Shown here: positions 4,537-24,000 of the stretch, one piece after another
Layout of the letters: every line of letters begins with the position of its first letter
Numbering within the stretch: the first letter of the stretch is position 1
Assembly (NCBI RefSeq): GCF_001597745.1
Contig: NZ_LUHJ01000050.1
Span: 136,697 to 160,696 of the forward strand
Length of the DNA stretch: 24,000 nt
Origin: Anabaena sp. 4-3
GTDB taxonomy: Bacteria; Cyanobacteriota; Cyanobacteriia; Cyanobacteriales; Nostocaceae
Direction: 5' to 3'
Notes under the pieces: generated by a model
Seen by the model: the letters and a program-made list of their open reading frames with translations, nothing else
What the model was told of the DNA's origin: nothing
Databases searched by the model: none
Translations under genes and position numbers: made by a program

Positions 4537-4611
4537 GAGCGCGAAGGTATCTATTCTTGTGGTTCGGTATTTATGCAAGAGGTTCGATGAACAAGGATGA
4601 AAATATTTATT

Positions 4612-4630
4612 CCCTACTCCCTACTCCCTA
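4612..4630. repeat. STRR-like tandem heptamer CCCTACT x2.7
   Basis: CCCTACT CCCTACT CCCTA in the intergenic region between the Rop-like orf and the DUF269 orf. Confidence 0.7.
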
Positions 4631-4633
4631 TTT

Positions 4634-5110
4634 TTACAGTTTGCTGACTTCGCGGAAGCGGTTGGCTAGGTCTAGTCCTTTGGTGACAAATTTCTCGCCT
4701 TCTTCGGCTAGTTGCTCTAGGGATTCAAAACCAAAGCGGTGTGCGTCGCGTAAGGTTTTGACGGTGAGTAATAGGCGACCGGAAAAGACTAAGGCCCAGC
4801 CAAAGCCTTCATGACTTAAATCAATTACTACTTGGGAAATTAGTCCGGTTTCTTGTTCGATTCTGGCAGCTATGGCGCGGAAAAATGACATGATTCGCGC
4901 TTGGGTGACAGGATCAACTTCACCTTCTATGGGAATTTCCCTTTTCTTTTTTTTGGGAACTATGAAGGGTTTTAGAAGTAGTTCGTCAGACCAACTGCGG
5001 AAAACTCCGTAAGTGTCTTGTCCGCGAATTTGTAATACTAAGGCTTTGAGAAATGGGGAGTTGGCAACTACATCTGTGGCGGTGTCGTTGACGCTATTTT
5101 CTGCGCTCAT
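4634..5110 (-). CDS. NifX-associated nitrogen fixation protein (DUF269 family; orf2 of Anabaena)
   Basis: 158 aa. FLKALVLQIR...HEGFGWALVFSGRLLLTVKTLRDAHRFGFESLEQLAEEGEK is the conserved DUF269 core. Its ATG overlaps the nifX stop. Confidence 0.85.
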   Translation of the reverse strand: MSAENSVNDTATDVVANSPFLKALVLQIRGQDTYGVFRSWSDELLLKPFIVPKKKKREIPIEGEVDPVTQARIMSFFRAIAARIEQETGLISQVVIDLSHEGFGWALVFSGRLLLTVKTLRDAHRFGFESLEQLAEEGEKFVTKGLDLANRFREVSKL

Positions 5111-5526
5111 ACTGTTGCTTCGTCTTCTAATTCATCAAGAAAGTTTTTGGTTTTGGGTTGCAATGCTTTCCGCAACCAAGGGGGAGGATTGCCTTTGAGG
5201 GTTTGAACTAATTTATTGAGGATTTCTTTAATTTCTTCTTGTTCGGAACGTGCTTTAACTGGGGTAACGCCTTTTTTGATTAATTTAGCGGCAGCAGTTC
5301 CACCAATTGCTGTGACATAAACTATGGCGCAGTCAACTAATGCGTCTAGTTTTGGTGCAACTTTATCTTCGTTGCCGTCTTGTTTTAAGTCACCTTCAAA
5401 GTTTAATGTTTCTAAAAATTGATATCCTTCTGCGTCGATTTCGTAGACATCAATTTCTCTCGCCCAGCCAAAGTGAGCATTAATATGAACGTGGTCGGTA
5501 GTTGTAAAGGCAATTTTCACTTTCAT
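5107..5526 (-). CDS. nifX: nitrogen fixation protein NifX
   Basis: NifX/NifB-C-terminal-like fold: MKVKIAFTTTDHVHINAHFGWAREIDVYEI.... I prefer the ATG at 5526, preceded by AGGAGA, over the ATG at 5574, which adds 16 non-conserved residues. Confidence 0.85.
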   Translation of the reverse strand: MKVKIAFTTTDHVHINAHFGWAREIDVYEIDAEGYQFLETLNFEGDLKQDGNEDKVAPKLDALVDCAIVYVTAIGGTAAAKLIKKGVTPVKARSEQEEIKEILNKLVQTLKGNPPPWLRKALQPKTKNFLDELEDEATV

Positions 5527-5613
5527 TCTCCTGCTTTTTTGGTCGTTGGGGATGGGGCATAGGGAATTGGGCATTGGTAATTTCTCCTCAATTCCCTAAT
5601 TTTGAATTTTGAA

Positions 5614-6939
5614 TTAATTTGACACCAGCCCCCATAGATGTTTCATTCGTTCTTCTTCTGCTTCGAGAAATAAGTTACCGATGCCAAATAAGACTTCCAT
5701 TGAGCCGCGATAACCTACTTTTGTGAATAGACCATTACCTAATCGGTCATAGATAGGTATACCGAGGCGATAGAGAGGGATGGATAGACGTTTGGCGATC
5801 GCAGCTACGTTAGAATTACCAATCAGCAGGTCAGATCCAACTGCCAATTCTTCAAAGTCTTCTAAATCACCAATGGTAACGCTCTTGATGGGGAGTTTTT
5901 CTAAGAGGGGTGAGCGTGTGGTGGTGACGGCTGCATGAATTTGTGTCCCCATCGATTGCAGAAACCGCACTGTTGACCAGAGTAAATCCGGTTCTAATGC
6001 TAATGATACTCGCTTGGCACTAAAGTAAAAGTGCGTGTCTAACATTGCATCTTGCAGTTGACGGCGTTGACGGCGATACTTTTCGGGTACGGGGCGACTG
6101 CTCAGTATGGCTAGTGCTTGTAAAAACTCGTCTACTGGTTCTAGTCCCGTGAGTTCACTGAATACTTCGTAGGGAATGTTAAACCGTTCTTCGAGTATTT
6201 TGGCTGCACCCCGCATACTTTCACCCAAGGCGATAGTAAAGGCGGAACTACCAATTTCTTGAAGTTGTCTGATGGTTGTACCACTGGCTGTCACCGCACT
6301 GTAACCATCTTCTAGATGTCCATCGAGTGATGCGCCGATGTCAGGGACAAAGATGGGAATTAATCCAAAAGCGGTGACAATCTCTTTAATTTCTTGCAAA
6401 TCCCCTGGTGTGAAGGCAGAACCAGCCAGAATTGTGACTTGTTCGCTTCTGATTGCCCCTGCTTTGGGGATTTCTTTGACTATGCTTTCGACAGCTGCGG
6501 CAAAACCATCTTGCAACGCCCCTTTAAAGTCAGGTGTGGGTGCAAAAATAACTGGGATGTGAGCGATTTCTGGATGGCGATCGCGGATATCCTTCAAAAA
6601 TTTCACAATATCATCGCCTCTAGTTTCTGTGAGTCCAGTGCTACACAAACCAATAACTTCAGGATTGGACTTCTCTACTAAGGTTAGTATCGCCTGTTCG
6701 ATGTTTTCTTCTCCACCCAAAATCGTAGTTACTTCCGTCATCGCTGTGGTAGCTAGGGGAATTGCTTCCCGAAAATGACGGACTAACACCACTTTGGCAA
6801 AGGCTGTACAACCTTGCGAACCGTGAAACAGAGGAATCATCCCCTTCAATCCCAAAAAAGCCAGAGATGCACCCAAAGCTTGACTTTGCTTTAGAGGATT
6901 CACTGCAACTGATTTTTCGGGAACAGTAACAACCGCCAT
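5614..6939 (-). CDS. nifN: nitrogenase FeMo-cofactor biosynthesis scaffold subunit NifN
   Basis: Conserved NifN start MAVVTV...NPLKQSQALGASLAFLGLKGMIPLFHGSQGCTAFAKV. The ATG at 6939 overlaps the nifE stop (TGATG) and is preceded by GAGGAG. The listed 478-aa ORF begins inside nifE and is an over-extension. Confidence 0.92.
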   Translation of the reverse strand: MAVVTVPEKSVAVNPLKQSQALGASLAFLGLKGMIPLFHGSQGCTAFAKVVLVRHFREAIPLATTAMTEVTTILGGEENIEQAILTLVEKSNPEVIGLCSTGLTETRGDDIVKFLKDIRDRHPEIAHIPVIFAPTPDFKGALQDGFAAAVESIVKEIPKAGAIRSEQVTILAGSAFTPGDLQEIKEIVTAFGLIPIFVPDIGASLDGHLEDGYSAVTASGTTIRQLQEIGSSAFTIALGESMRGAAKILEERFNIPYEVFSELTGLEPVDEFLQALAILSSRPVPEKYRRQRRQLQDAMLDTHFYFSAKRVSLALEPDLLWSTVRFLQSMGTQIHAAVTTTRSPLLEKLPIKSVTIGDLEDFEELAVGSDLLIGNSNVAAIAKRLSIPLYRLGIPIYDRLGNGLFTKVGYRGSMEVLFGIGNLFLEAEEERMKHLWGLVSN

Positions 6940-8378
6940 CAGATTAACTCCTCGATAGATGCCAAAGCGCGATTTTGATTTTTTGTATATTCGTGAGCCA
7001 GTGTCCCCATATCTTCGTCCCAAGGTGCGGGCTTTCGGACTTGTTCCCAAATCGGGCTGTAGAGGGCTTCGTACAATTCCCGCGCCATTTCCAACATTCC
7101 TACATAGCCGGCGTAGGGATGATGACGTTCTTGGTTGATATCGAGGAAAGGAATCCGGGCTTTTAGGGCGGTGTATTGGTTACGACCACCGGCAATTAAC
7201 ATATCAGCTTGTGTATCTTTGACCAATTGCAGCAATTCTTTGGCGTTGCCCTTTTCTAACATGATGCCTTCAGTACCCAGCAATTTCTTGATTTTTCCCT
7301 TATCTTCTTCCGTACTCTTGCGGGTACTGGTAGCAACTACTTCTATACCTAAGTCTTTCGCTGCGGAGATAATTGACCAACTCTTGACACCACCTGTGTA
7401 TAATACAACACGCTTACCTCTGAGGCGATCGCGATAGGGAGCGAGAGTCAAATCTAGAGCCGCCATTTCTGACGCTATCAACTCCTCTGTGCGTGCTTGT
7501 AAATCCGGGTCGCCCAATTGAGCCGCAATATTCCGCAGACACCGATTCATATCATCGATGCCATAAAAAGATTCTTCAATGTAGGGGATGCCGTATTTTT
7601 CCTCCATCTTTTTCGCCATATTGAGCAACGCCCGCGAACAAATCATGACGTTCAGCTTGGCGCGGTGAGCATAGCGGATTTCCTCAAATCGAGCATCGCC
7701 TGTAATTTTCGACAGGACACGAATACCCAATTTTTCTAGTAACGGCAGGACTCCCCACATTTCTCCGGCGATGTTATACTCGCCAATTAAGTTTATATCA
7801 TAGGGGGTGGTAAACTCCGGTTCTGCTGTCCCGACAACATAATCTAATAAAGCTTCACCGCCGAAACGGTTGCCTAAGTTCTTACTACCAATGAAGCCAG
7901 GAGCAAATACAGGGATAACTGGAGTATTAATTTTTGCTGCCGCCGCCTTGCACACAGCATTCATATCGTCACCAATCAAGGCTGTTACACAAGTAGCGTA
8001 GACAAATACCGCAGAGGGTTTGTAGCGTTTGTGAATTTCTAGAATTGCCTTATAGAGTTTCTTCTCACCACCGAAGATGACATCATTTTCTGACATATCG
8101 GTAGTGAAGCCCATTTTATAGAGTTGGGGGCCTGAAGAGAGACTACCACGACTACCCCAAGAATTACCAGCACAGGCGATCGGCCCGTGAACCAAATGAG
8201 CCGCATCGGCAATAGGTACTAAAGCAATCATCGCCCCGTCAAAAGCACAGCCACCTTGAGCCGCACCCGGTTGTGCTTGTTGTGTACAAGACTTATTCTT
8301 CTTTGCACCGTGTTTCTGTTGATTATGCTCGCATCCCGGCTGATTCAGCAGTTCGTTGATTTTGCCTTGGGTGTTCAT
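6939..8378 (-). CDS. nifE: nitrogenase FeMo-cofactor biosynthesis scaffold subunit NifE
   Basis: 479 aa. The sequence ...[38 protein letters not shown]...[18 protein letters not shown] is a NifD-like NifE signature. The gene is intact. Confidence 0.95.
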
Positions 8379-8399
8379 CGCAAAAATGGGTTTGAAACC

Positions 8400-8425
8400 C
8401 CGTCCTTTAGCGAAGCAAAGGACGG
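8400..8425 (-). other. stem-loop between the isrB stop and the nifE start (possible IS200/IS605-type subterminal hairpin or terminator)
   Basis: 9-bp perfect inverted repeat CCGTCCTTT / AAAGGACGG with an 8-nt loop, 14 nt downstream of the isrB stop codon. Confidence 0.35.
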
Positions 8426-8438
8426 CTTTACATATCTT

Positions 8439-9533
8439 CTAGGCAACAATTAACCCGTTGGAACGACGAATCAATTGCACTTTGCTAGAAGCAATCTGCC
8501 CTAACCGTTTCCAGTTAGCATCGCTGACAGATATCTGTTTTTCAGTGTCACCACTGACATAACCAATTCCCTTGGGCGAATGAACCAAATCACCCTTACG
8601 TAATCCGTGGCGAGTTGTAGAACCACCGTATTGACGACGTACCCCACCCTTTGCAGGAAGCATCAGGTGAAGTTGACGGCGAGATAATGGTGGTCTACGA
8701 ACACAAGTGAATACAGCAGGTGTAATCACAACATCGCCAAACCAATCAGCACCATCAATCTTTGTCGTGTGATACTGTCGGTACTCCACAAAAGCTGTTG
8801 CTGCAATAGCCACACCATCAACCGCATGAGTATTAAACTCAGGCTTGGATTTGTCTACCTTATTCTTGGTTAGCCCCAAGTGTTTGCGAATTGATGCAGT
8901 TTGATAGCCTTCAACTTTAACAACTGGTGCAAACTGTTCTAGCTGACTTAACATCCATTTTTGTCCGACCATTACAGGTGAAAAGTCTTTACCTGACTTT
9001 GCTTTTTTGCGTCCACTGGTGAGGTCTACATCAGCCCGAACATACTCGTAGCGTATTTCTGAGACTGGGTAAATTTTGCATAACTCAGAAACTATTCTCA
9101 GTTCCAATTGACGATTAGCCCGGATTGACGGCGCAAGTTTACCTTGACGGCAATTATCAAAACGTTTCTGGCGATGTGCGCGTTTTGAAAACACAACCTT
9201 GTGGTTAACTCTCCTACTCCGACGACTACGCCGCATTAATCGCCTTGCATCCATCCGGTTACGCACTGTCTGAAACGGCAAAATCAGATGTGCTGTATAA
9301 AGAGTCAACTTAGCTCCTTGAACACCAATTCCAGAGAACTTCTTGCCAGGGTCAATCCCAATGACAATATCTTGGGTTGCTCGTCCAGATGGCTCGCCAG
9401 TCAGTTGAACATAAAATTGTCCCCCGTCCGACCAGCGTTTTACTGCTTTACCCGATGCTATCCACTTCCTTGCTCGTGCAGGTGTTGTGGGCATCAGTGG
9501 TTGGTGGTTTTGATCTACTACAGGTACTCGCAT
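8439..9533 (-). CDS. isrB: IscB-family RNA-guided nuclease lacking the HNH domain (IsrB-like, OMEGA system effector)
   Basis: 364 aa. It has an N-terminal PLMP domain (VDQNHQPLMPTTPARARKWIASGKA), RuvC-I (VIGIDPGKKFSGIGV), an Arg-rich bridge helix (RRLMRRSRRSRRVNHK), RuvC-II (SEIRYEYV) and RuvC-III (NTHAVDGVAIA). The ~65 aa between RuvC-II and RuvC-III contain no Cys/His HNH motif. The size is the IsrB class (~350 aa), not IscB (>400 aa). Confidence 0.75.
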   Translation of the reverse strand: MRVPVVDQNHQPLMPTTPARARKWIASGKAVKRWSDGGQFYVQLTGEPSGRATQDIVIGIDPGKKFSGIGVQGAKLTLYTAHLILPFQTVRNRMDARRLMRRSRRSRRVNHKVVFSKRAHRQKRFDNCRQGKLAPSIRANRQLELRIVSELCKIYPVSEIRYEYVRADVDLTSGRKKAKSGKDFSPVMVGQKWMLSQLEQFAPVVKVEGYQTASIRKHLGLTKNKVDKSKPEFNTHAVDGVAIAATAFVEYRQYHTTKIDGADWFGDVVITPAVFTCVRRPPLSRRQLHLMLPAKGGVRRQYGGSTTRHGLRKGDLVHSPKGIGYVSGDTEKQISVSDANWKRLGQIASSKVQLIRRSNGLIVA

Positions 9534-9539
9534 TTTTTG

Positions 9540-9790
9540 GTATAACCCATAAATGTTTAAGTCCCTTCCCGCAACACAGCTAAGATGTCTTGGCTTTACT
9601 CAACTCCTGAACCAATCAGGATTACAGAGGGCTAAACTAGGGAAGTATTTAGCCGTGTGTACCAAACCGTGTCTCAATGCGGTATTCACTTCTTGCGTTG
9701 CCTAAATTGGTTTAGGCAATCCCCGCCCTAAAAGTGCAGGGTTAGTGAACTCTCTTCTCGCGCTAGATCGACATTTTTAATTTTAAGTTA
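9540..9790 (-). ncRNA. candidate omega-RNA scaffold upstream of isrB (extent approximate)
   Basis: The non-coding 5' flank of isrB is packed with perfect local hairpins: 9698..9719 (9-bp stem TTGCCTAAA/TTTAGGCAA), 9630..9654 (7-bp GGCTAAA/TTTAGCC), 9606..9620 (5-bp CCTGA/TCAGG) and 9726..9741 (CCCT/AGGG). IscB/IsrB omega-RNAs are encoded directly 5' of the ORF. No covariance-model check was possible. Confidence 0.45.
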
Positions 9791-10023
9791 TCAGTCATCA
9801 GCAATTAGTTAATAGCTATCAACTTATATACTGATGACCGTTCTTCATAAACTTCTTGCAAAAATCTTCTTTAAACCACATACACCAACTCATCTATCGG
9901 CGTATATTCGCACGGCGGTTAAATTTTCATAAACTAGACTTTTGCAAGAAAGGCCGCGATGTAATTAGGTAACATAAACAGCAAGAGGAATTCTTTTCCC
10001 TAGCCGCTTCTAGCCTTTAGTTT

Positions 10024-10350
10024 CTAGCAAATGTACTTAGTGACATCTTCTCCACATTCATCAGTTAGATAAGATAAAGCGCGAAAACGCAATCCTACAA
10101 AGTCGTCATACAGAGGATTGAGTTTACACAATGCTGGAATATGGAAAGTCCGCCCAAATAAATTAATATTTCGCTCAAAGGGACAACAGCAAGGTATAAC
10201 CTGACAGATGAGATGAGCGAAACGAGCATTGTTAACTGGAATATGATTAACCCAACGACGCAAAGGATGGAGAACATCAAATGCGCCGGGTTGTTTATAA
10301 TTGGGTGGATGGAAATTAGGATGATGATGGTGAGTGTGAGTTGTGGACAT
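10024..10350 (-). CDS. Mo-dependent nitrogenase C-terminal domain family protein (Mo-nitro_C type orf downstream of nifK)
   Basis: 108 aa. ...LICQVIPCCCPFERNINLFGRTFHIPALCKLNPLYDDFVGLRFRALSYLTDECGEDV matches the remembered conserved core of this cyanobacterial nif-cluster family. The N-terminus is His-rich. Confidence 0.7.
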   Translation of the reverse strand: MSTTHTHHHHPNFHPPNYKQPGAFDVLHPLRRWVNHIPVNNARFAHLICQVIPCCCPFERNINLFGRTFHIPALCKLNPLYDDFVGLRFRALSYLTDECGEDVTKYIC

Positions 10351-11580: not shown

Positions 11581-11643
11581 ATACATAATTAATGCGCTCA
11601 CAGACTTGCTCTACAGGGGTTTTATTATCTTGCTGGCTGGCGT

Positions 11644-11660
11644 TGCTTAGTTTTTACTTA
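11644..11660 (-). promoter_or_regulatory. 6-5-6 direct-repeat motif, recombinase-distal copy in the nifK element
   Basis: The minus strand reads TAAGTA-AAAAC-TAAGCA. A 63-nt gap separates it from the core at 11574..11580. It forms a 23-nt near-repeat (GGCNTTGCTTAGTTTTTNCTTAA) with 13458..13481. Confidence 0.45.
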
Positions 11661-11992
11661 ACTCTTTGAAATCTCCCCTTAATTTTTCAAGCAAAAAAGT
11701 AAATTTATTTCTTAGTTTTTGGTTAAATCTGGAGATATTTTCTACTGCAAAATAATATATTAACTATAACGGTTAAAATAACTTCTTTTCTTCCATATTT
11801 ACCGGAATAAGCTAACTAATTACTTATATAAAGTTATACATTTTACACCCATGAACAGTCAAAAAAGTTTAGTTTTTTCATAAAATAAGGTTGAATTTAA
11901 AAACGGTATCTAATGTACTTACTTTGTTATATTTTAGTGGTAATATTTGATAATTTTTAATCATCTACACAAAGATGTCATGCACAACATTA

Positions 11993-12019
11993 CAAAAAAA
12001 AGGGGGCTAACTACCCCTT
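11993..12019 (-). terminator. Rho-independent terminator of the nifK-element recombinase gene
   Basis: The minus strand reads AAGGGG-loop-CCCCTT followed by T8, about 20 nt after the stop codon at 12039. Confidence 0.6.
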
Positions 12020-12038
12020 CTAGCGTAATGCAATTGAT

Positions 12039-13463
12039 TTAGTTAGATAGAGCTTGCTTTATTTGGTGTTCTGTCAACATTAACATTAATTTTTCTAGTT
12101 CACTTTTGAGTCTTGCTACTTCGGTTTTTAACATGATATTTTCTTCTTTTAGTTCATCCATTTCATCCTTTTTATTTACCGCTTGTTTAATCGCTTGCTT
12201 TCTATGTTCGATACTAAACCATTTTTGGTAAGTGTCTGTGTGTTGCTCTATTGTATGCCCTAAATTATCAGCCGCAGCTTTCAGAGGTACACCCATTAAA
12301 TGCGCTCGAATTGCCCAAGCATGACGCAAATCGTAAGGACGGAATCCGACTTTTACTTTTTGAAACCAATCAGATATAGCTTGAACTAAGGTATTCCTAC
12401 CCTGTAAATCACATCTACCATTAATGTATTTTTCGACTAAATTAATAATTTCAGGGTTTCGTAATTCAAATAATTCCACCCAATTTTCATGTAATGGGAT
12501 GACTTCTCTAAAACCTGTTTTACATTCCCCGTAAACTTTCCATCTAAAATCGGTATTATCTTGACTTAGCCAATACTTGAAATCTGGATTTAAAATTACC
12601 TCATGCGGTCGGCATCCATAAGCAGCAATCATGCCATAAATCCATCTAAACACTAACCAATTATCTGCTTGTTCCTTTCTTTTATTTCGTCGGTTTTTAG
12701 CGTATTCTTCCCATTTTAAAAAACTTGTTTCAATGTCTGTATCGCTTGGGATGTCACGCCGTTCTGTTTGAGGTCTTTGGAACTTTACTTTTAAAGGAAT
12801 ATCAAAAGTTTTAGTAAATAAGTTTAAGGTGATCGCAGTCCTGTGCTTCCATTGTCCTATATCATTAGGTATGGCATCAAATTGTTTTTTTAAATTTTCT
12901 GGAGTTGCCAGCATTTCCCTATCAAACTGCTTCAGCACTTTCATGTAATTTGCAAAAGTACCTTCTGAGCCGATATTCCTTTGTCTTTCTGAAAAATACA
13001 ATCCTTCATATTGCTCTAATAGTTCTCCAAAAGTTTTGTTTTCTTTATCCTGTTTTTTACCTAAATACTTATCAGTCCATTCAAAAGTTTGACGAGCAAT
13101 TAATTTACTCAGTTCGTGAGCTTCTTCTGTCGCAGTTTTCAGCCCGTGTAGATTAGCAGGAATTCCTAACGATATTTTATATTGCTTTTTTCCCTTACCT
13201 GTTTTGTCAATATCTCCTGGTTTTAATGGCAGCGTTGCCTGTAACTGAAGCGCGTTCCCGGTTCTGATAATACTTACCCGTGCTTTGTCAGCTTTCAATC
13301 TAGTGTTAGCTTCCTCAAGCTTCAGTTTAAGCTGTTCTTCACTCTTGGCTGTTTGTTTGAGTACGTGCTTCATAGTTCCCATGTATGTCCCGTCTGTAGT
13401 GGCTTTAAATTCTTTATCGACGGTAGAAGCGTTGTAATCCCTGTGCAGTCTAGTTTTTGGCAT
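12039..13463 (-). CDS. XisA-family site-specific tyrosine recombinase (nifK element)
   Basis: 474 aa and a paralog of the two other recombinases in the window. Shared blocks include LQLQATLPLKPGD, LHGLKTATEEAHELSKLIARQTFEWTDKYLG, WIYGMIAAYGCRPHE, YDLRHAWAIRAHLMGVPLKAAADNLGH (H-x-x-R box) and HTDTYQKWF (candidate catalytic Tyr). A C-terminal coiled coil is present. Confidence 0.9.
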   Translation of the reverse strand: MPKTRLHRDYNASTVDKEFKATTDGTYMGTMKHVLKQTAKSEEQLKLKLEEANTRLKADKARVSIIRTGNALQLQATLPLKPGDIDKTGKGKKQYKISLGIPANLHGLKTATEEAHELSKLIARQTFEWTDKYLGKKQDKENKTFGELLEQYEGLYFSERQRNIGSEGTFANYMKVLKQFDREMLATPENLKKQFDAIPNDIGQWKHRTAITLNLFTKTFDIPLKVKFQRPQTERRDIPSDTDIETSFLKWEEYAKNRRNKRKEQADNWLVFRWIYGMIAAYGCRPHEVILNPDFKYWLSQDNTDFRWKVYGECKTGFREVIPLHENWVELFELRNPEIINLVEKYINGRCDLQGRNTLVQAISDWFQKVKVGFRPYDLRHAWAIRAHLMGVPLKAAADNLGHTIEQHTDTYQKWFSIEHRKQAIKQAVNKKDEMDELKEENIMLKTEVARLKSELEKLMLMLTEHQIKQALSN

Positions 13464-13480
13464 TGCTTAGTTTTTGCTTA
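13464..13480 (-). promoter_or_regulatory. 6-5-6 direct-repeat motif abutting the recombinase ATG (nifK element)
   Basis: The minus strand reads TAAGCA-AAAAC-TAAGCA immediately followed by ATG. A further related unit (CCAAAAACTAGACT) lies within the first codons. Confidence 0.45.
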
Positions 13481-13604
13481 AATATCATGAAACAACCTCA
13501 GCCAAAATACATCTGTTCAGGAGAAGCAGTTTAGCTGTGGCTCTTGCAACTAGGTATTTCGGTGGTTTTAAGATACCATGATTCATCTCTGATAACCCAA
13601 TTTT

Positions 13605-14547: not shown

Positions 14548-15966
14548 ATGCAAAATCAGGGTCAAGACAAATATCAACTAGCCTTTGCAGACTTAGAGCC
14601 TCTTTCATCTACCGACGGCAGTTTTCTCGGCTCAAGTCTGCAAGCACAGCAGCAAAGAGAGTTTATGAAAGCAAAGGTATTACAAGAATTAGAAAAGGTA
14701 AATCTGCGTTTGAAGTCTGCAAAGACCAAAGTCACAATTAGGGAATCACACGGAAGTCTGCAATTAAGGGCGACATTACCCATTAAACCAGGGGATAAGG
14801 ACAGCAGAGGAACTGGGAGAAAGCAATACAATCTCAGTTTGAATATTCCTGCTAACTTGGATGGACTGAAAACGGCTGAGGAAGAAGCTTATGAATTAGG
14901 TAAATTAATCGCTCGTAAAACCTTTGAATGGAATGATAAATATTTAAGCAAGGAAGCTACTAAAAAAGATGTGATAACCATAGGTGAGTTACTGGAAAAA
15001 TTTGAAGAAGAATATTTTAAAACTCATAAACGCACAACCAAAAGCGAACATACTTTTTTTTATTATTTTTCTCGGACTCAGCGATATACCAATTCTCAAG
15101 ATTTAGCAACTGCGGAAAATTTCATCAGTTCCATTCAACAAATCGATAAAGAATGGGCTAGATATAATGCAGTCAGAGCAATATCGGCGTTTTGTCAGAC
15201 ATTCAACATCGATATTGATTTATCTCAATATTCCAAAATGCCTGAGCGCAATTCTCGGAATATACCAACCGATGCGGAAATAACTACAGGAATTAGCAAA
15301 TTTGAAGAGTATTTAAATATCAGAGGTAATCAAGTTAATCAAGATGTTAAAGATAGCTGGCAGCTTTGGCGGTGGACGTATGGAATGTTAGCAGTTTTTG
15401 GTTTACGCCCAAGGGAAATTTTTATTAACCCTGATATTGATTGGTGGTTAAGTTCAGATAATTTAGATTTTACATGGAAGGTGCATAAAGACTGTAAAAC
15501 TGGTGAAAGGCAAGCATTACCTTTACATAAAGAATGGATTGATCAGTTTGATTTAAGAAATCCTAAGTATTTAGAAATGCTGGCGACAGCAATTAGTAAA
15601 AAAGATAAGAATAATCATGCGGAGATAACAGCATTAACACAAAGAGTTAGTTGGTGGTTTCGCAAAATCGGGTTAGATTTTAAGCCTTATGATTTGCGTC
15701 ATGCTTGGGCAATTCGAGCGCATATTTTAGGAATTCCCATCAAAGCGGCGGCGGATAATTTAGGGCATAGTGTGCAAGTTCACACCCAGACTTATCAGCG
15801 TTGGTTTTCCCTAGATATGCGGAAGTTGGCAATTAATCAGGCTTTGACTAAGAGGAATGAGATTGAGTTAATTAAGGAGGAGAATGCTAAGTTGAGGATG
15901 GAGAATGAAAGGTTGAAGTTGGAGATTGAGAAGTTAAAGATGGAGTTTGTTTATAAACAGAGTTGA
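14548..15966 (+). CDS. xisA: site-specific recombinase XisA (nifD element excisase)
   Basis: 472 aa. The N-terminus MQNQGQDKYQLAFADLEPLSSTDGSFLGSSLQAQQQ... and much of the rest match XisA of Anabaena PCC 7120 as I remember it. It has the tyrosine-recombinase box YDLRHAWAIRAHILGIPIKAAADNLGH...HTQTYQRWF and sits next to the CGGAGTAAT core. Confidence 0.93.
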   Translation: MQNQGQDKYQLAFADLEPLSSTDGSFLGSSLQAQQQREFMKAKVLQELEKVNLRLKSAKTKVTIRESHGSLQLRATLPIKPGDKDSRGTGRKQYNLSLNIPANLDGLKTAEEEAYELGKLIARKTFEWNDKYLSKEATKKDVITIGELLEKFEEEYFKTHKRTTKSEHTFFYYFSRTQRYTNSQDLATAENFISSIQQIDKEWARYNAVRAISAFCQTFNIDIDLSQYSKMPERNSRNIPTDAEITTGISKFEEYLNIRGNQVNQDVKDSWQLWRWTYGMLAVFGLRPREIFINPDIDWWLSSDNLDFTWKVHKDCKTGERQALPLHKEWIDQFDLRNPKYLEMLATAISKKDKNNHAEITALTQRVSWWFRKIGLDFKPYDLRHAWAIRAHILGIPIKAAADNLGHSVQVHTQTYQRWFSLDMRKLAINQALTKRNEIELIKEENAKLRMENERLKLEIEKLKMEFVYKQS

Positions 15967-16081
15967 ATAGGCTAAAAAAATTGATCTGGTGTGTTGTACT
16001 GTTAAACAACATATCTAGATTGTTCATTACTTCCACTATTACATCAAATTAAGTAATATTACGATGTTAATTTACCTAGAA

Positions 16082-16150
16082 AGCAAGTATTGTAAATCAG
16101 CTTGAGTACAGTATTTCATCATGAATATGAATTAACACTGACGCACCCTT
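16082..16150. repeat. degenerate REP-hairpin copy
   Basis: AGCAAGTAttGTaaaTCAGCTTGAGTACAGTATTTCATCATGAATATGAATTAACACTGACGCACCCTt aligns with the 65-bp REP units below, but its left arm is decayed. Confidence 0.5.
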
Positions 16151-16298
16151 GATTTTCGTTGTTACGTATATATACTAATAAAATATAGCTATTCTATAAA
16201 CAAAAAAACACATAAACTTTAATGATTGGATATTGTATATTTTAATTTTTCTAGATACATTTAAAGAGTATTGTTCACGTCACTAAACTTTATTAATC

Positions 16299-16502
16299 AT
16301 GGCAGAACCATTAACTACCCTTGCAACAGGAGTTGTTGTAACGTTTGGGGCAGCAGCAGTTACAGCAGCAGGCGAAAAATTTGGAGAGTATGTAGCTGAA
16401 CAAGCAATTGAAGCTTGGGAAGAAGGGTGGGAGAGACATGACGAAGCTGTTAGTAATTTGTTGGGATCTCCTAATGATGAGCTAGAAGGGGCAGAAGCAT
16501 AA
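16299..16502 (+). CDS. small acidic hypothetical protein (67 aa)
   Basis: ATG-initiated ORF after a long AT-rich region. It has a Gly/Ala/Val-rich N-terminal half and an acidic C-terminal half. A perfect 12-bp-stem terminator follows 23 nt later. No family was recognised. Confidence 0.35.
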   Translation: MAEPLTTLATGVVVTFGAAAVTAAGEKFGEYVAEQAIEAWEEGWERHDEAVSNLLGSPNDELEGAEA

Positions 16503-16524
16503 TAATTCATCCGATCATCTAAGA

Positions 16525-16567
16525 CAAAACAGAGTATAGAGGTTTCTGTACTCTGTTTTGTTGTTGT
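16525..16567 (+). terminator. Rho-independent-type terminator after the small ORF
   Basis: CAAAACAGAGTA / TACTCTGTTTTG 12-bp perfect stem with a 12-nt loop, followed by TTGTTGT. Confidence 0.55.
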
Positions 16568-16577
16568 CAGCAAGCAA

Positions 16578-16642
16578 GTAGGGTGCGTCAGCTTGAGTGA
16601 GTTATTTCATCACAAAAATGAATTAATGCTGACGCACCCTAC
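16578..16642. repeat. REP/REPIN-like 65-bp hairpin (orientation A)
   Basis: 15-bp terminal inverted repeats GTAGGGTGCGTCAGC ... GCTGACGCACCCTAC. It lies 10 nt from the stop of the RAYT gene. Confidence 0.8.
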
Positions 16643-16652
16643 AAAATATGGG

Positions 16653-17204
16653 TTATTCCCTGCCAATATTGTCAGGTATATTTGGTACTTGAACACTTCC
16701 CCAATCTTCTGGATAAATTCCTTGTTTAACAAAACGGTGAAAACTTGAATATTTCCATTCTTTGGGAGATTGGCATAAACCATGCTTGACAGGATTATAA
16801 TGAACATAATCACAATGGTTAGCAAAGTCTTTTTCATCTCTAATTAAATGTTCCCAATATCGCCTTTGCCATAAATTACTTTCTTGGCGTTTTTGGCGCG
16901 ATTGACTAATTTCTGCTATTATGCCTAATTTTTCTGCACAACTATAGGTAACAAAGCTTTTAATTAATCGCCAACGGATGGCATAATTACTATCATTTTC
17001 CGGTAAAGTCCAGATACAATGAATATGCTCTGGTAAAAGAGCGATCGCCTCAAGAGAAAAAGGATAAAGTTGCTGAACTCTCCTAATAGATTTGCGAAGG
17101 TTTTCTCGCCCTATCTCACTACATAACCAAGGTATTCTTTGATAAGTCACCTGGGTAAAAAAGAAAGTACCTCCAGACGCTAAAACTCGGCGATAATTAG
17201 ACAT
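16653..17204 (-). CDS. REP-associated tyrosine transposase (RAYT; IS200/IS605 TnpA-like Y1 HUH enzyme)
   Basis: 183 aa. It has GGTFFFTQVTYQR, the HUH motif in LPEHIHCIWTLP, and RRYWEHLIRDEKDFANHCDYVHYNPVKHGL with the conserved Tyr region. The gene is flanked by inverted copies of the 65-bp hairpin. Confidence 0.85.
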   Translation of the reverse strand: MSNYRRVLASGGTFFFTQVTYQRIPWLCSEIGRENLRKSIRRVQQLYPFSLEAIALLPEHIHCIWTLPENDSNYAIRWRLIKSFVTYSCAEKLGIIAEISQSRQKRQESNLWQRRYWEHLIRDEKDFANHCDYVHYNPVKHGLCQSPKEWKYSSFHRFVKQGIYPEDWGSVQVPNIPDNIGRE

Positions 17205-17278
17205 ACTTCAGTATGATTTCATATTTAGCGCAAAAATTTTGACTGTACTGATACACACTAATACTACACTAAAGTAAT

Positions 17279-17343
17279 GTAGGGTGCGTCAGCGTTAATT
17301 CATTTTCATGATGAAATAGTGTACCCAAGCTGACACACCCTAC
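17279..17343. repeat. REP/REPIN-like 65-bp hairpin (orientation B, inverted relative to 16578..16642)
   Basis: GTAGGGTGCGTCAGC...GCTGACACACCCTAC. The interior is the reverse complement of the 16578 copy, with one arm mismatch. Confidence 0.8.
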
Positions 17344-17522
17344 AGAATAATTTCATGGTAAAAGAGCGTTAGTGTAGGTATCGCCTCCACAGAACAAGGA
17401 TAAAGTCCCATAAGTAAAAAGCAAGTATATCCACAGGCGATCGCAACAAAATAATAGGATTTGATAATATTAATGGAGTGGGCGATCGCTTATCGCCAAA
17501 ACCGCAGATTTGCAAAAACACT

Positions 17523-18101
17523 ATGGCAAAGCGTAAGAAAAACAATCTCCAGTGGATTAAAGAAACGCTTGAACTCAAGCCTGACCATCGTTGGGAAGCA
17601 CCATCAGGCTATAAAATCTTTGTAGCAGATCGGGGGGCTGTGCGCTTCAATGTTCCCCAGAATTGGTTTTTTGAGCCACAAGAAAAATCATTCAAGTTCA
17701 GTGATAGAAAACCACCTGATGATGATTGCTGTCTAGAAGTATCTTTCAATCGTCTACCGCCTCGTGACTGGAGTCTATTTCCCCTAAAATCTACCTTAAA
17801 GAAAGTGGTAGAAGATGATGGTCGCAACGTCATAGAGAAAGGGGAAATCATTACTGAAAAACGCCAAACCGCCCGAATTGTCTGGACAGAAATTAAGTTT
17901 ATCGACACTCAGGAAGAAGCACGGGAAGCATTTTCCCGGATTTGCATAGGTTTGGGTTCAAATGTGCAATGCTTGATTACATTCGATTATTGGGCTGATC
18001 AAGCCGAACAACTCACACCCGTTTGGGATGAAGTGATGCGTAGTCTCACACTAGGGTTATATATCCGCGATCCAAGTACGGGTTTGGCTTATCCAGATTA
18101 A
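17523..18101 (+). CDS. hypothetical protein (192 aa from the ATG at 17523)
   Basis: Long ORF with no competing frame. The listed start at 17478 is a GTG, and the first ATG gives MAKRKKNNLQWIKE.... No family was recognised. Confidence 0.5.
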   Translation: MAKRKKNNLQWIKETLELKPDHRWEAPSGYKIFVADRGAVRFNVPQNWFFEPQEKSFKFSDRKPPDDDCCLEVSFNRLPPRDWSLFPLKSTLKKVVEDDGRNVIEKGEIITEKRQTARIVWTEIKFIDTQEEAREAFSRICIGLGSNVQCLITFDYWADQAEQLTPVWDEVMRSLTLGLYIRDPSTGLAYPD

Positions 18102-18305
18102 GGCATAATATAAAATTAAAAGTAAGTCTTTAGTTCAGTTGTAATTAGGTATTGGAGAGATTGAGGTTAATAAATTTCCTTGCACAAGGTAAAATATAAG
18201 GCTTAATTCCATTCGGTATCAACATTGTCTAGCAGTGCAGTATGGGGAAGTTATAGCTGTAAAAGTTTCATGAAAATCACTATCTAGCAATTTGGAGCTA
18301 TTGAA

Positions 18306-19418
18306 ATGGTAGAAGAATCTAATAAACCAAGTTATCCAAGAAAAGTTATTATTAACATTCCATCTGAACATACCGAACTACAACCTACAAACCCAGAATT
18401 CAGCAATTATCGGAGTTTTGCCAAATACTGTTATTTATATGATCCATTAGTTGATACTAAAACAGTAACAGCATTCGATGAAGCTACTTTTGAATATCAG
18501 GAAAGATGGCATCGTAGAGGGTTCATTTACCTGAACGAATATGTCACACGTTACCCACTGCAATACTATTATAGTTGTCTTGCATATCATAGAGAACAGC
18601 TACTTCCAGGTAAAGCTTTAAAATTAGTAGAAAATTTTCAGAAAAAAACTGCATCCTATGAAGAAGATAACCGAAATAGGTGCAGACTTCTGAATGAACT
18701 GGATAGAAATATTAATCAGACATTTATCCTGAAACAGTACATTTACTACAGATGTAACAATGGTCAAGATGGCTGGAGTATCTTTTTACGATCACCAAAT
18801 GTGAAGGTTGAGTCAGACAGACCCTTTATTATTGGTAAAGGGAAAACTTTGCAAGAGGCTGATACCGATTTTAATCAAATGAAGGCTCGAAACTTTACGA
18901 AGATTACTAATATTGACAATATTCTAAAATTTTTAGGAGAAAATAATGTTCCCGTGAATGCGAAAGAAATGATTGATGTGTGTGTTACATTTGATTCAAA
19001 AATATACAAATCAAATGTAATACATCAAAATCATGGTCGTAAAATAACAGCTACACTAGCTGCGCGATATACTTTCCAATGTAGTTCAGAAGAAACTACC
19101 TTTTGCCTGGATGTAAATTTATATTCACAAAACATCAATTGGAAAGTTACTAAATACTTAAATCTTGATGATCAAAGTTCTCTTATTAGCAAGTTATCAA
19201 TAGAAGCTTCTGCAACCACTATTAAAGAAGCTTATTACACTTGTATCAAAAAATCAAAAGAACTTCAAGAAGATAATGATGCTTTAAACAAAGCTATTCA
19301 TGAAGCCGAACAGCTAGAGTTGAAATTGATAGAAGAAGATATGATTCGTGATGGTGAAGATACCTTTAATTGGCTGGTTTCAGAATTTGGTGATGACATA
19401 ATTCCAGATAGAGGTTAG
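18306..19418 (+). CDS. hypothetical protein (370 aa), AT-rich gene with a C-terminal coiled-coil-like tail
   Basis: Uninterrupted 1.1-kb ORF, rich in Asn/Lys/Tyr. The C-terminal end (KELQEDNDALNKAIHEAEQLELKLIEEDMIRDGED) looks helical. No catalytic motif was recognised. Confidence 0.55.
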   Translation: MVEESNKPSYPRKVIINIPSEHTELQPTNPEFSNYRSFAKYCYLYDPLVDTKTVTAFDEATFEYQERWHRRGFIYLNEYVTRYPLQYYYSCLAYHREQLLPGKALKLVENFQKKTASYEEDNRNRCRLLNELDRNINQTFILKQYIYYRCNNGQDGWSIFLRSPNVKVESDRPFIIGKGKTLQEADTDFNQMKARNFTKITNIDNILKFLGENNVPVNAKEMIDVCVTFDSKIYKSNVIHQNHGRKITATLAARYTFQCSSEETTFCLDVNLYSQNINWKVTKYLNLDDQSSLISKLSIEASATTIKEAYYTCIKKSKELQEDNDALNKAIHEAEQLELKLIEEDMIRDGEDTFNWLVSEFGDDIIPDRG

Positions 19419-19439
19419 CGTATAGTAAGCAAGTAGCAA

Positions 19440-19504
19440 GTAGGGTGCGTCAGCTTGAGTAGACTATTTCATCATGAAAATTAATTAATGCTGACGCACC
19501 CTAC
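19440..19504. repeat. REP/REPIN-like 65-bp hairpin (orientation A)
   Basis: GTAGGGTGCGTCAGCTTGAGTAGACTATTTCATCATGAAAATTAATTAATGCTGACGCACCCTAC with perfect 15-bp arms, 22 nt after the stop of the 370-aa ORF. Confidence 0.8.
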
Positions 19505-19823
19505 AGAACTTTGGCAACTTAGTATAAGTTTATCTACGGTCGCTGAACTCTATCGTCAAGTCTGTTTAGGTTGAACATACCACAGGTCGATTACTTCTGC
19601 TTATGGCGATCGCATCCCCTACTGTTAAATGAAGCGATATCTGCGACAATGCTGCACCAACGCCTCATGTTAATCTAAAAAAATATCAATTAAAATAGTT
19701 TTTTAATTTACAATTTTCCGCTAACCAAAATTTAAGCAAAACCCAAAAACCAGACCCCATAAGAGTTATATTATCTAAAACCGCAAAAATAAATTGTTCC
19801 CAGATAACCCTAAAACCTACATT

Positions 19824-21398: not shown

Positions 21399-21881
<483 letters not shown>

Positions 21882-21950
21882 TTAACCTATAAATGTTCAA
21901 TTTAAACAATGTTTGCTGTCATCATTGTCAATGATGAACAGTATTTTTAT

Positions 21951-21967
21951 TAGGGTAAATCTAGGGT
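21951..21967 (+). promoter_or_regulatory. 6-5-6 direct-repeat motif abutting the recombinase ATG (nifH element)
   Basis: TAGGGT-AAATC-TAGGGT immediately followed by the ATG at 21968, ~92 nt inside the nifH junction. Confidence 0.45.
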
Positions 21968-23395
21968 ATGAACAGAACACAGGAAGCATTTGCCGATTTT
22001 CAAGCAACAGCCATCACCGATGGAGGATATTTAGGCAGAATGCAAGCAGTAATAGAGCAACAAAATCACTTGGCGGCAAAATTAGAGGCGGAATTAAAGG
22101 CGGTAAATGCTAGACTGAAGGCGGCGAGGGTAAGTGTTTCTGTAAGGAAATCTGGTAATTCGCTGCAACTGAGAAGTACCCTACCCATTAAACCAGGAGA
22201 TATTGATAAAAAAGGTATAGGAACGAAACAATATGATGTTTCTTTGGGTATACCGTTTAATTTTGATGGTTTAACTACGGCGGAAGAAGAAGCTTATGAG
22301 TTAGGTAGATTGATTGCAAGAAAACAGTTTCAATGGACTGATAAATATCTAGGCAAAACTCGCCATAAAGTTAAAGCAAAAACTATTGGTGATTTGATTG
22401 CAGATTTCGAGCGCAATTATTTCCAAACTAGAAAACTTACTCTGAAGAGTGAGAACACTTTTAATAGTTATCTGTATATTGCTCAAACACACTTACCGCA
22501 GGATAAACCAGCAACAAATGTTAATTTTATTGAAGCTGTGCAAGGTTGTACTTCCTCAGATAGTGTAAAAAATGAGTTAATTAAAGTGATTCGGGTATTG
22601 TGTAAATGTTCTGGGTTAGAAGTCCCAGAGCTTAGTAATTTAAAAATCAAACCTAGTGCTACACGTAAGCGTGATATACCGACTGATGCAGAGATAGAGC
22701 AGGAATATCTCAAGTTTGAGACTTACGCCCTCAACCGTCCTAGTAAATTGCTCACCAGGGAAGATAGGAATAATTGGAAACTTTGGCGTTGGGTATATGG
22801 GATGTTAGCTACCTATGGATTACGACCAAGAGAAATTTTTGTCAATCCTGATTTAGATTGGTGGTTATCATCAGATAATACTATGAATACTTGGCGTGTG
22901 AACGAAGAATGTAAAACAGGTGAAAGGGAAGCTTTACCATTATATCCGCGCTGGGTGGAGATTTTTAATTTAAAAACTGATACGGAAGCGATTGAGTTAT
23001 TAAAGGCGAAGATAAAAAATAAGATTTCCAGTAAACAAATTAATTCGGCTCGACATGGTACAGACCGATGGTTTAGATTTGTCGGGATTCCTTTTCAACC
23101 TTATGATTTACGTCATGCTTGGGCTATTAGAGCGCATTTAATGGGGATTCCTATTAAAGCTGCTGCTGATAATTTGGGTCATTCGGTGAATATGCACACA
23201 TCCATTTATCAAAAATGGTTTAGTTTGGAAAATCGCAAGGTTGCTATTGAACAAGCTATTAAGAAAAAGTCTAAGGTGCAAGAGTTGCAAGAAATGGTAA
23301 TTGCGCTACAGCAGGAAAATGAGCAATTGAGAAGAGAAAATGAGAGGTTGCGGTTACAGATAGAAAATCAAGGAGTGATACCCATGATGAATTAA
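21968..23395 (+). CDS. XisA-family site-specific tyrosine recombinase (nifH element)
   Basis: 475 aa with the same conserved blocks as the other two: LQLRSTLPIKPGD, TTAEEEAYELGRLIARKQFQWTDKYLG, WRWVYGMLATYGLRPREIFVNPDLDWWLSSDN, YDLRHAWAIRAHLMGIPIKAAADNLGHSV..H..IYQKWF. A C-terminal coiled coil is present. Confidence 0.9.
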   Translation: MNRTQEAFADFQATAITDGGYLGRMQAVIEQQNHLAAKLEAELKAVNARLKAARVSVSVRKSGNSLQLRSTLPIKPGDIDKKGIGTKQYDVSLGIPFNFDGLTTAEEEAYELGRLIARKQFQWTDKYLGKTRHKVKAKTIGDLIADFERNYFQTRKLTLKSENTFNSYLYIAQTHLPQDKPATNVNFIEAVQGCTSSDSVKNELIKVIRVLCKCSGLEVPELSNLKIKPSATRKRDIPTDAEIEQEYLKFETYALNRPSKLLTREDRNNWKLWRWVYGMLATYGLRPREIFVNPDLDWWLSSDNTMNTWRVNEECKTGEREALPLYPRWVEIFNLKTDTEAIELLKAKIKNKISSKQINSARHGTDRWFRFVGIPFQPYDLRHAWAIRAHLMGIPIKAAADNLGHSVNMHTSIYQKWFSLENRKVAIEQAIKKKSKVQELQEMVIALQQENEQLRRENERLRLQIENQGVIPMMN

Positions 23396-23609
23396 GCAAA
23401 GGTTCTGGCGGTGCTGATTAAGAATATGAATTTATCTCACGCAGAGACGAGCCAGTGCGTTGGGCGGCTTCGCCGACTTGTAGCAACTGGCGTGCAGAGG
23501 CGCAGAGAGAGAGTAAGATTTTGTAGAAGCAAAAATTAAAATTTTATGCTTCAATTCAGCAACGCCAAATTTTTCATACTGAAGAATTAAGCGAGGTGTT
23601 GGGAAGTGA

Positions 23610-23822
23610 CTAAGCCAACACTAAAATACTTTCTTGTTGAGTATCGGCAAACTGGTTAATGATGTTAAAGTTATCTCGCAAAATTTGCACAATTTTAGAT
23701 GTTGGGCTGTTACCAATACGAAGAAATATAAATTTTGGAGGATGACCATAAAGTAAACTGCGTTGATGAAAATCAGAGTCTTTAGAAACAATCACAAAAT
23801 CATTCAATTTCGCGTATTCCAA
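23610..23822 (-). pseudogene. C-terminal fragment of a PIN-like DUF5615-type (toxin-like) gene
   Basis: ...VIVSKDSDFHQRSLLYGHPPKFIFLRIGNSPTSKI... resembles the C-terminal half of DUF5615 proteins. The ORF only 'starts' at a TTG, and the N-terminal half with the acidic catalytic residues is missing. Confidence 0.4.
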
Positions 23823-24000
23823 TCGACACGAAGCGGTTGTTTTTTTGGTCTTTTAATCCCATACTCTTGTATAAGTGTCCATTTGAACTGCTGACAGCAA
23901 GACTCAAGCAATTTTTGAAAAGCAGCTTTAACGGCAGTCTCATGCACAACACCCAATTTGTTAAAATTTTCTAACTCTTCGTAATACTGCTTAATAGGTT
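23804..24000 (-). pseudogene. truncated ORF resembling the N-terminus of large restriction-modification-type DNA methyltransferases (5' end outside the window)
   Basis: The open frame entering from the window edge reads PIKQYYEELENFNKLGVVHETAVKAAFQKLLESCCQQFKWTLIQEYGIKR...LRVD, then stops at 23804 in another frame of the DUF5615 fragment. The family call is from memory of similar N-termini and is weak. Confidence 0.25.

Follow-up and report, generated by a model that had tools for sequence, protein, structure and literature searches.

The 24,000-nt stretch of Anabaena sp. 4-3 DNA analysed here (contig NZ_LUHJ01000050.1; hereafter the window, to whose positions all coordinates refer) carries in its nif gene cluster a gene for an IsrB protein, preceded by the RNA that would guide it. 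Both belong to a 1371-bp insert on the minus strand that lies immediately 5' of the ATGA at the beginning of nifE. The insert is very probably an insertion sequence of the IS200/IS605 family, of the IsrB-only (ISC1) type and non-autonomous. As an IsrB the element is ordinary, the family being known, abundant in cyanobacteria and biochemically characterised; its novelty is one of location and not of kind, and literature searches found no published description of IsrB in a nif cluster or in Anabaena.

Boundaries and contents of the inserted element

The limits of the insert were set by comparison with related copies, taken from a scan of one genome per species, and with nif clusters in which it is absent. 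In blastn alignments the similarity to independent cyanobacterial copies starts abruptly at 9749 (TTCACYRACC...) and ends at 8375 (...YGATGA). In every copy the downstream end leads into (Y)GATGA, beyond which the flank is unrelated, and among independent insertions the flanks on both sides are unrelated, only two loci (L005 and L008, see below) sharing a site. Four related nif clusters lack the element and have ATGA at their empty site. In one of these, that of Nostoc sp. UHCC 0870 (L087), gagaagagag is followed directly by ATGAacaccc (in longer form, ...aaaatgtcgatctaggacgagaagagag followed by ATGAacacccaagg), which corresponds to window position 9750 joined to 8378. This places the inserted DNA at 8379..9749 and makes the ATGA part of the host sequence. 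The insertion point lies between ...GAGAAGAGAG, which is the purine-rich leader of nifE, and ATGA, and the empty site shows no target duplication.

A first-pass annotation of the window had described a unit at 8400..9840 inserted between nifK and nifE. Its placement in the cluster is upheld, more exactly between the 108-aa open reading frame (ORF) that follows nifK and nifE itself, in the same orientation as the nif genes and with the sister clusters empty at this point, and its limits are superseded by those given above.

The ends resemble those of IS200/IS605 elements in being sharp, in having subterminal hairpins (9741-9721 and 8425-8400) without inverted terminal repeats, in the absence of a duplication and in the fixed adjacent motif ATGA. 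At the downstream end, the 9-bp hairpin 8425-8417/8408-8400 (CCGTCCTTT/AAAGGACGG) is kept in all copies, among which compensatory changes are seen (CCGTCC/GGACGG to CCGCCC/GGGCGG). A small GGGTTTCAAACCC hairpin and a T-run occupy 8400-8381, and a terminator-like pattern was called at 8400..8388. Two flanking hairpins had earlier been suggested as the element ends, and both exist; the one at 8400..8425 does lie in the conserved end, whereas the one at 9794..9838 (GTCATCAG/CTGATGAC) is host DNA and was rejected as an end, being conserved (at ~9792..9840) in the four element-free sister nif clusters.

The 1371 bp are taken up by the RNA, isrB and the 60-bp downstream end (Table 1), and tnpA is absent from the element and from the adjoining DNA. 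All complete copies (36/36) measure 1330-1452 bp, so that there is no room in them for tnpA, and the mobilising transposase must be encoded elsewhere. An ORF at 16653..17204 was considered as the missing TnpA on account of a weak match to Pfam Y1_Tnp, but it encodes a REP-associated tyrosine transposase (NF047646, E=2e-54) and was set aside.

Table 1. The inserted element, its parts, the helices of the predicted omega-RNA and adjacent host features, in window coordinates.
Feature	Position	Strand	Remarks
Whole inserted element	8379..9749 (1371 bp)	(-)	Non-autonomous IS200/IS605-type, ISC1-like IsrB element (very probable); sharp blastn ends and empty site
isrB gene	8439..9533	(-)	364 aa; PLMP, RuvC I, Arg-rich bridge helix, RuvC II, short linker replacing HNH, RuvC III, C-terminal domain interacting with the target-adjacent motif (TAM)
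Omega-RNA scaffold (predicted)	9555..9749	(-)	May extend to the IsrB start codon at 9533; HEARO match and covariation
Guide segment of omega-RNA (predicted), host flank GATCTAGCGCGAGAAGAGAG	~9750..9769	(-)	Position directly 5' of scaffold; 20-nt length assumed from DtIsrB
Downstream element end, canonical IS200/IS605 left end	8379..8438	(-)	60 bp; hairpins, T-run, terminal ...TTTTTGCG
TAM / transposase target motif ATGA	8375..8378	(-)	Host DNA: nifE start codon ATG and first base of codon 2
nifE	6939..8378	(-)	Directly downstream of element
108-aa ORF, Mo-nitrogenase C-terminal domain	10024..10350		Follows nifK; upstream neighbour of isrB ORF
P1	9749-9744/9690-9685	(-)	
P2	9741-9736/9726-9721	(-)	
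P3, 9 bp	9719-9711/9706-9698	(-)	
Long-range helix	9682-9679/9572-9569	(-)	
Long-range helix	9673-9662/9584-9573	(-)	
Hairpin, 7 bp	9653-9647/9637-9631	(-)	
Hairpin, 5 bp	9621-9617/9609-9605	(-)	
Hairpin	9603-9600/9593-9590	(-)	
Pseudoknot	9710-9707/9615-9612	(-)	Loop of 9-bp hairpin with loop of 5-bp hairpin
Pseudoknot	9643-9639/9566-9562	(-)	Loop of 7-bp hairpin with AGGGA

The IsrB protein and its omega-RNA

The product of the isrB ORF has the motifs PLMP (residues 12-15), IGIDPG (D61), the Arg-rich RRLMRRSRRSRR (97-108), IRYEYV (E163) and THAVDG (H236, D239), and matches Pfam RRXRR over residues 3-176 (E=8e-49). By far the best match among solved structures in a phmmer search was the DtIsrB chain of 8DMB, which aligns over nearly the full length (residues 2-361, E=7e-41). 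The residues of that chain were numbered with an offset of 150, which was checked with R100 and R104. In the RuvC alignment D61 (IGIDPG), E163 (YEYV) and H236/D239 (THAVDG) stand opposite VDPG, TEDV and THANDA of DtIsrB, the bridge helix RRLMRRSRRSRR aligns with RRNLRRARR (which contains R100 and R104), and the two residues that read the TAM, R323 and Q326 in DtIsrB, are conserved as R343 and Q346. No HNH family was matched at E<=1 in a Pfam search of the 364-aa protein, and the short segment between RuvC II and RuvC III aligns with the DtIsrB linker. The initial description of the ORF as an IsrB with the full order of domains, without HNH between RuvC II and RuvC III and with its RuvC catalytic residues in place, was thus correct in each respect. 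Similarity to IscB is confined to the N-terminal part: NCBIfam guided_IscB matches residues 5-170 only, with 108 bits against a cut-off of 175, and the IscB chains align to the N-terminal third to half (query residues up to 175) with E of 1e-9 or weaker. The protein is 59% identical to an IsrB of Crocosphaera watsonii WH 8501 (chromosomal copy L040). Judged from its sequence, the 364-aa protein is an IsrB, without sign of catalytic inactivation, and only nicking would be expected of it because the HNH domain is absent.

Upstream of isrB, the region 9520..9860 folds better than its shuffles (z = -3.1). The full HEARO model of Rfam (RF02033, positions 1-211) aligns to 9555..9749 on the minus strand (E=2.6e-7) with 44.5 bits, which is under the Rfam gathering score of 83 and so speaks for homology and not for membership at the curated threshold. 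This match was found in E-value mode only, and at gathering thresholds Rfam gave no match in the window. Such a covariance-model search had been proposed as a check at the outset. HEARO, today called the IscB/IsrB omega-RNA, was defined on ORFs that contain HNH.

The structure was tested on 37 aligned copies, the upstream ends of which were located with an nhmmer profile; a simple regular expression caught only part of the copies. An RNAalifold model was supplemented with three helices added by hand and checked by pair counts, as RNAalifold alone, owing to gaps in the alignment, failed to recover P1, one hairpin and the greater part of P3. Across the 37 copies, the 55 nested pairs were paired in 94.1% of cells and 44 of the 55 showed compensatory changes, which was reached by none of 500 shuffles (0/500), and slid controls were 30-48% paired. 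For the two pseudoknots 95.5% of cells were paired, with compensatory changes at five of the nine pairs. The three upstream stems noted in the first-pass annotation (9, 7 and 5 bp) exist, and all are conserved helices of this RNA. Together these results support the assignment of the 216 nt upstream of isrB as an omega-RNA scaffold, which had also been predicted, and both pseudoknots correspond to the two described for group-B IsrB omega-RNAs (PMC9581776).

Two relatives have a structured insertion of ~55 nt at the same position in one hairpin loop of the omega-RNA, these being Calothrix anomala FACHB-343 (L012:3885-3939) and Anabaena azotica FACHB-119 (L019:3887-3942).

The guide had been expected at 9780..9830 and to be made of flanking sequence. 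With the scaffold starting at 9749, it would instead lie at ~9750..9769, and the second part of the expectation agrees with what is found, as the DNA directly 5' of the scaffold is the native DNA upstream of nifE. The sequence at the guide position is unrelated between copies, and in sister strains it is the native nifE upstream sequence. The putative guide GATCTAGCGCGAGAAGAGAG occurs once in the window.

Mobility, targeting and start-codon sites

The scan yielded 80 related loci, all of them cyanobacterial, with several copies in some genomes (Scytonema sp. HK-05 and Crocosphaera watsonii WH 8501). At E<=1e-5 there were 2813 homologues of the protein, and the best 120 of these 2813 are at least 78% identical to it. 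The family is present in many genomes as multiple copies at differing sites, and proteins from different cyanobacterial orders are ~80% identical.

Broken relatives also occur (L069, L077, L041, L062, L066 and L074). The isrB of L069 (Floridaenema flaviceps, 4570-7083) is split by an insertion of ~2.5 kb, and the others are C-terminal fragments only, with the downstream end intact. Separately, L005 on a contig of Planktothrix sp. PCC 11201 and L008 in a metagenome-assembled genome (MAG) labelled Candidatus Obscuribacterales have the same insertion site, 24-nt upstream flank and downstream start, which suggests that the L008 contig was binned into the wrong MAG.

How such an element might work can be drawn from its characterised homologues. 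DtIsrB, CwIsrB and DsIsrB carry out RNA-guided, TAM-dependent nicking of the non-target strand with NTGA or NTG TAMs; DtIsrB has an NTGA TAM, nicks ATGA targets, reads G3 with R323 and A4 with Q326, and uses a 20-nt guide (PMC9581776). The ATGA adjacent to the present element fits these TAMs and the conserved R343 and Q346. In IscB elements one transposon end delimits the omega-RNA, the guide lying outside that end, and the TAM is directly adjacent to the opposite end; these elements are rarely accompanied by tnpA, rely on transcription from upstream and tend to be oriented like the gene that precedes them, as would fit read-through transcription (Meers et al. preprint). By analogy, nif transcription from upstream, which has the same orientation, would read through the host flank into the element and would yield an omega-RNA with its 5' ~20 nt (9769..9750) as guide, to which IsrB would bind. 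If a Y1 transposase (TnpA) encoded elsewhere were to excise the element, the rejoined donor site, GATCTAGCGCGAGAAGAGAG followed by ATGA, would match the guide and the TAM. The occupied site would be spared, the guide match there preceding TTCA and not NTGA, and self-nicking is not expected because TTCA differs from NTGA at the G position.

Several points weigh against this account, in addition to the HEARO score given above. Transcription of nif is heterocyst-specific and heterocysts do not divide, and for this reason a guide RNA made by nif read-through may be of little evolutionary use to the present copy. No compatible TnpA was identified, the REP-associated gene at 16653..17204 being the only Y1-type gene in the window. 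We infer nicking, homing and expression at the present locus from homologues, and experiments have established homing by TnpB and IscB, nucleases that produce double-strand breaks, and not by the nickase IsrB (PMC13565253).

It is conceivable, though on balance unlikely, that the element is an immobile relic, intact but stranded in a genome without a compatible TnpA, with its IsrB and omega-RNA idle, and that it persists because it is harmless upstream of nifE. This would agree with the lack of tnpA in the element or beside it and with the observation that only ~1.5% of iscB genes are near tnpA (Meers et al. preprint). The same insertion is found in two assemblies, with surrounding DNA that is 99.5% identical and an identical protein, which indicates stability and not activity. 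However, no damage is seen in the ORF, the catalytic residues, the RNA helices or either end, and the scattered sites, multiple copies and ~80% protein identity across orders described above point to recent mobility of the family.

The first-pass annotation had called the element non-autonomous or domesticated, and the first of these terms is supported by the absence of tnpA, while nothing points to the second. Under domestication, IsrB and its omega-RNA would have been co-opted to influence nif expression by binding or nicking the DNA near nifE, in the manner of the TnpB-derived TldR transcription factors; the domestication of TnpB is a precedent (bioRxiv 10.1101/2023.11.30.569447). The location in the nif operon, directly before nifE and oriented like the nif genes, would suit such a role, yet we consider it highly improbable: the catalytic residues are intact, the guide is, as in all other copies, simply the adjoining host sequence, the element is missing from sister nif clusters and its ends are typical of mobile elements. 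Moreover, the guide match at the occupied locus precedes TTCA and has no TAM, which would leave the ribonucleoprotein without a target there.

Hardly any weight is given to the reading of the protein as an IscB whose HNH has degenerated, or as some unrelated RRXRR protein, next to a mere transposon end or terminator structure, for although guided_IscB matches the N-terminal half and the HEARO model, built on HNH-containing ORFs, scores below its gathering threshold, RuvC II and RuvC III are separated by a short segment that follows the DtIsrB linker, IscB structures align to residues 1-175 at most, and long-range helices and pseudoknots with compensatory changes go far beyond an end hairpin.

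With the element read as a non-autonomous IsrB insertion sequence, one association across the family is a lead worth following and is more interesting than the element itself. At 30 of 52 evaluable downstream ends the flanking ATG begins an ORF that is 100 codons or longer; for all the remaining ATGA sites of these loci the figure is 13% (p=7e-14). Of the complete elements, for which both ends are mapped, 23/36 have the start codon of the downstream host gene as their flanking ATG, where 19% would be expected from ATGA sites that do not disrupt genes (p=5e-9). When the empty sites are reconstructed, those ORFs extend upstream in frame by at most 33 codons, and several of the ORFs begin with typical signal peptides or with the N-terminus of a response regulator. 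In the window, similarly, the element sits between the purine-rich leader of nifE and its ATG.

We tentatively propose, as a possibility that we hold with less than even confidence, that cyanobacterial IsrB elements are systematic passengers at start codons. The TAM ATGA would usually coincide with the start codon (Met and a codon with initial A) of a host gene oriented like the element; the guide would be the 5' leader or ribosome-binding region of that gene, the guide RNA would be made by host transcription, and the host ORF would stay intact with its native initiation region replaced by the conserved U-rich element end. If this is true, IsrB and the omega-RNA in the window would be under the (heterocyst) transcription of the nif operon, and translation of nifE would depend on the end of the element. 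Joint selection for the sparing of genes and for sense transcription from the host promoter is a plausible cause of the enrichment; it may otherwise reflect targeting, or an element end that evolved to drive downstream translation. Integration upstream of ATGA/GTGA was reportedly noted in the 2009 HEARO paper. If the start-codon enrichment has not yet been described, it bears on how promoterless guide RNAs are expressed and on how harm to the host is avoided.

The surrounding nif cluster and comparison with known systems

Because the element precedes the start codon and does not enter the gene, nifE is intact; the insertion parts the unbroken gene from its native purine-rich leader, inside a heterocyst-specific operon. 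That leader (GAGAAGAGAG) is now 1371 bp from the nifE start codon, and the terminator-like hairpin and T-run of the conserved element end are only ~10 nt ahead of the nifE ATG. In clusters without the element, the strong host hairpin GTCATCAG...CTGATGAC is found ~45-90 nt upstream of the nifE start; it could be a structure for processing or stabilising transcripts, or the terminator of the upstream ORF.

Interruptions occur elsewhere in the cluster. In nifK there is a 2024-bp element (11581..13604), flanked by a 7-bp direct repeat (TCACCAA) and carrying an XisA/XisC-like tyrosine recombinase gene on the minus strand (12039..13463). It is missing from an otherwise 99.5% identical contig of GCA_001597855.1, in which nifK is continuous. 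The nifD element (14548..19614, with xisA at 14548..15966) and its counterpart in GCA_001597855.1 differ in content and share only 17329..18108 (95%); the REP-associated tyrosine transposase gene (16653..17204) lies within the element of the window. An interruption also appears to be present ~426 nt into nifH (21858..24000), similarity to the reference contig ending at 21857; the DNA that adjoins the break has a third XisA-like recombinase gene (21968..23395), and the other end of this interruption is outside the window.

The locus adds one natural pair of IsrB and omega-RNA for which a guide, a TAM, both ends and an empty site are defined. It is a clean example of the OMEGA layout, and since sister strains give the exact sequence before insertion it would be useful for teaching and for the design of nicking or homing assays.

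Of the known systems, a close one is DtIsrB-omegaRNA of Desulfovirgula thermocuniculi (8DMB; Hirano et al. 2022, PMC9581776). It and the present system agree in domain order and align over their full length, share the catalytic motifs, the bridge-helix arginines and the TAM readers, have an NTGA-type TAM for which ATGA is accepted, and have an upstream omega-RNA with a 5' guide and two pseudoknots. They differ in that the sequences are distant, with several indels, the host here is a mesophilic cyanobacterium, and the scaffold is ~216 nt compared with 264 nt in D. thermocuniculi. The omega-RNA here probably resembles subgroup B2 and not B1, because no obvious SL3 is seen. Compared with HEARO (RF02033), the model hairpin at positions ~128-170 is largely missing.

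Also close are CwIsrB (Crocosphaera watsonii) and DsIsrB (Dolichospermum sp.), which are likewise cyanobacterial and of the same family, and for which an NTG TAM and guide-dependent nicking in vitro have been described (PMC9581776); the C. watsonii WH 8501 copy used here for comparison, L040, may or may not be the exact CwIsrB locus that was tested. Finally, the IscB elements of the IS200/IS605 family (such as GstIscB and OgeuIscB) have the same layout of guide flank, omega-RNA, nuclease gene, end hairpin and TAM, are transcribed from upstream and usually lack tnpA, but IscB has an HNH domain and cuts both strands, whereas the protein described here has none.

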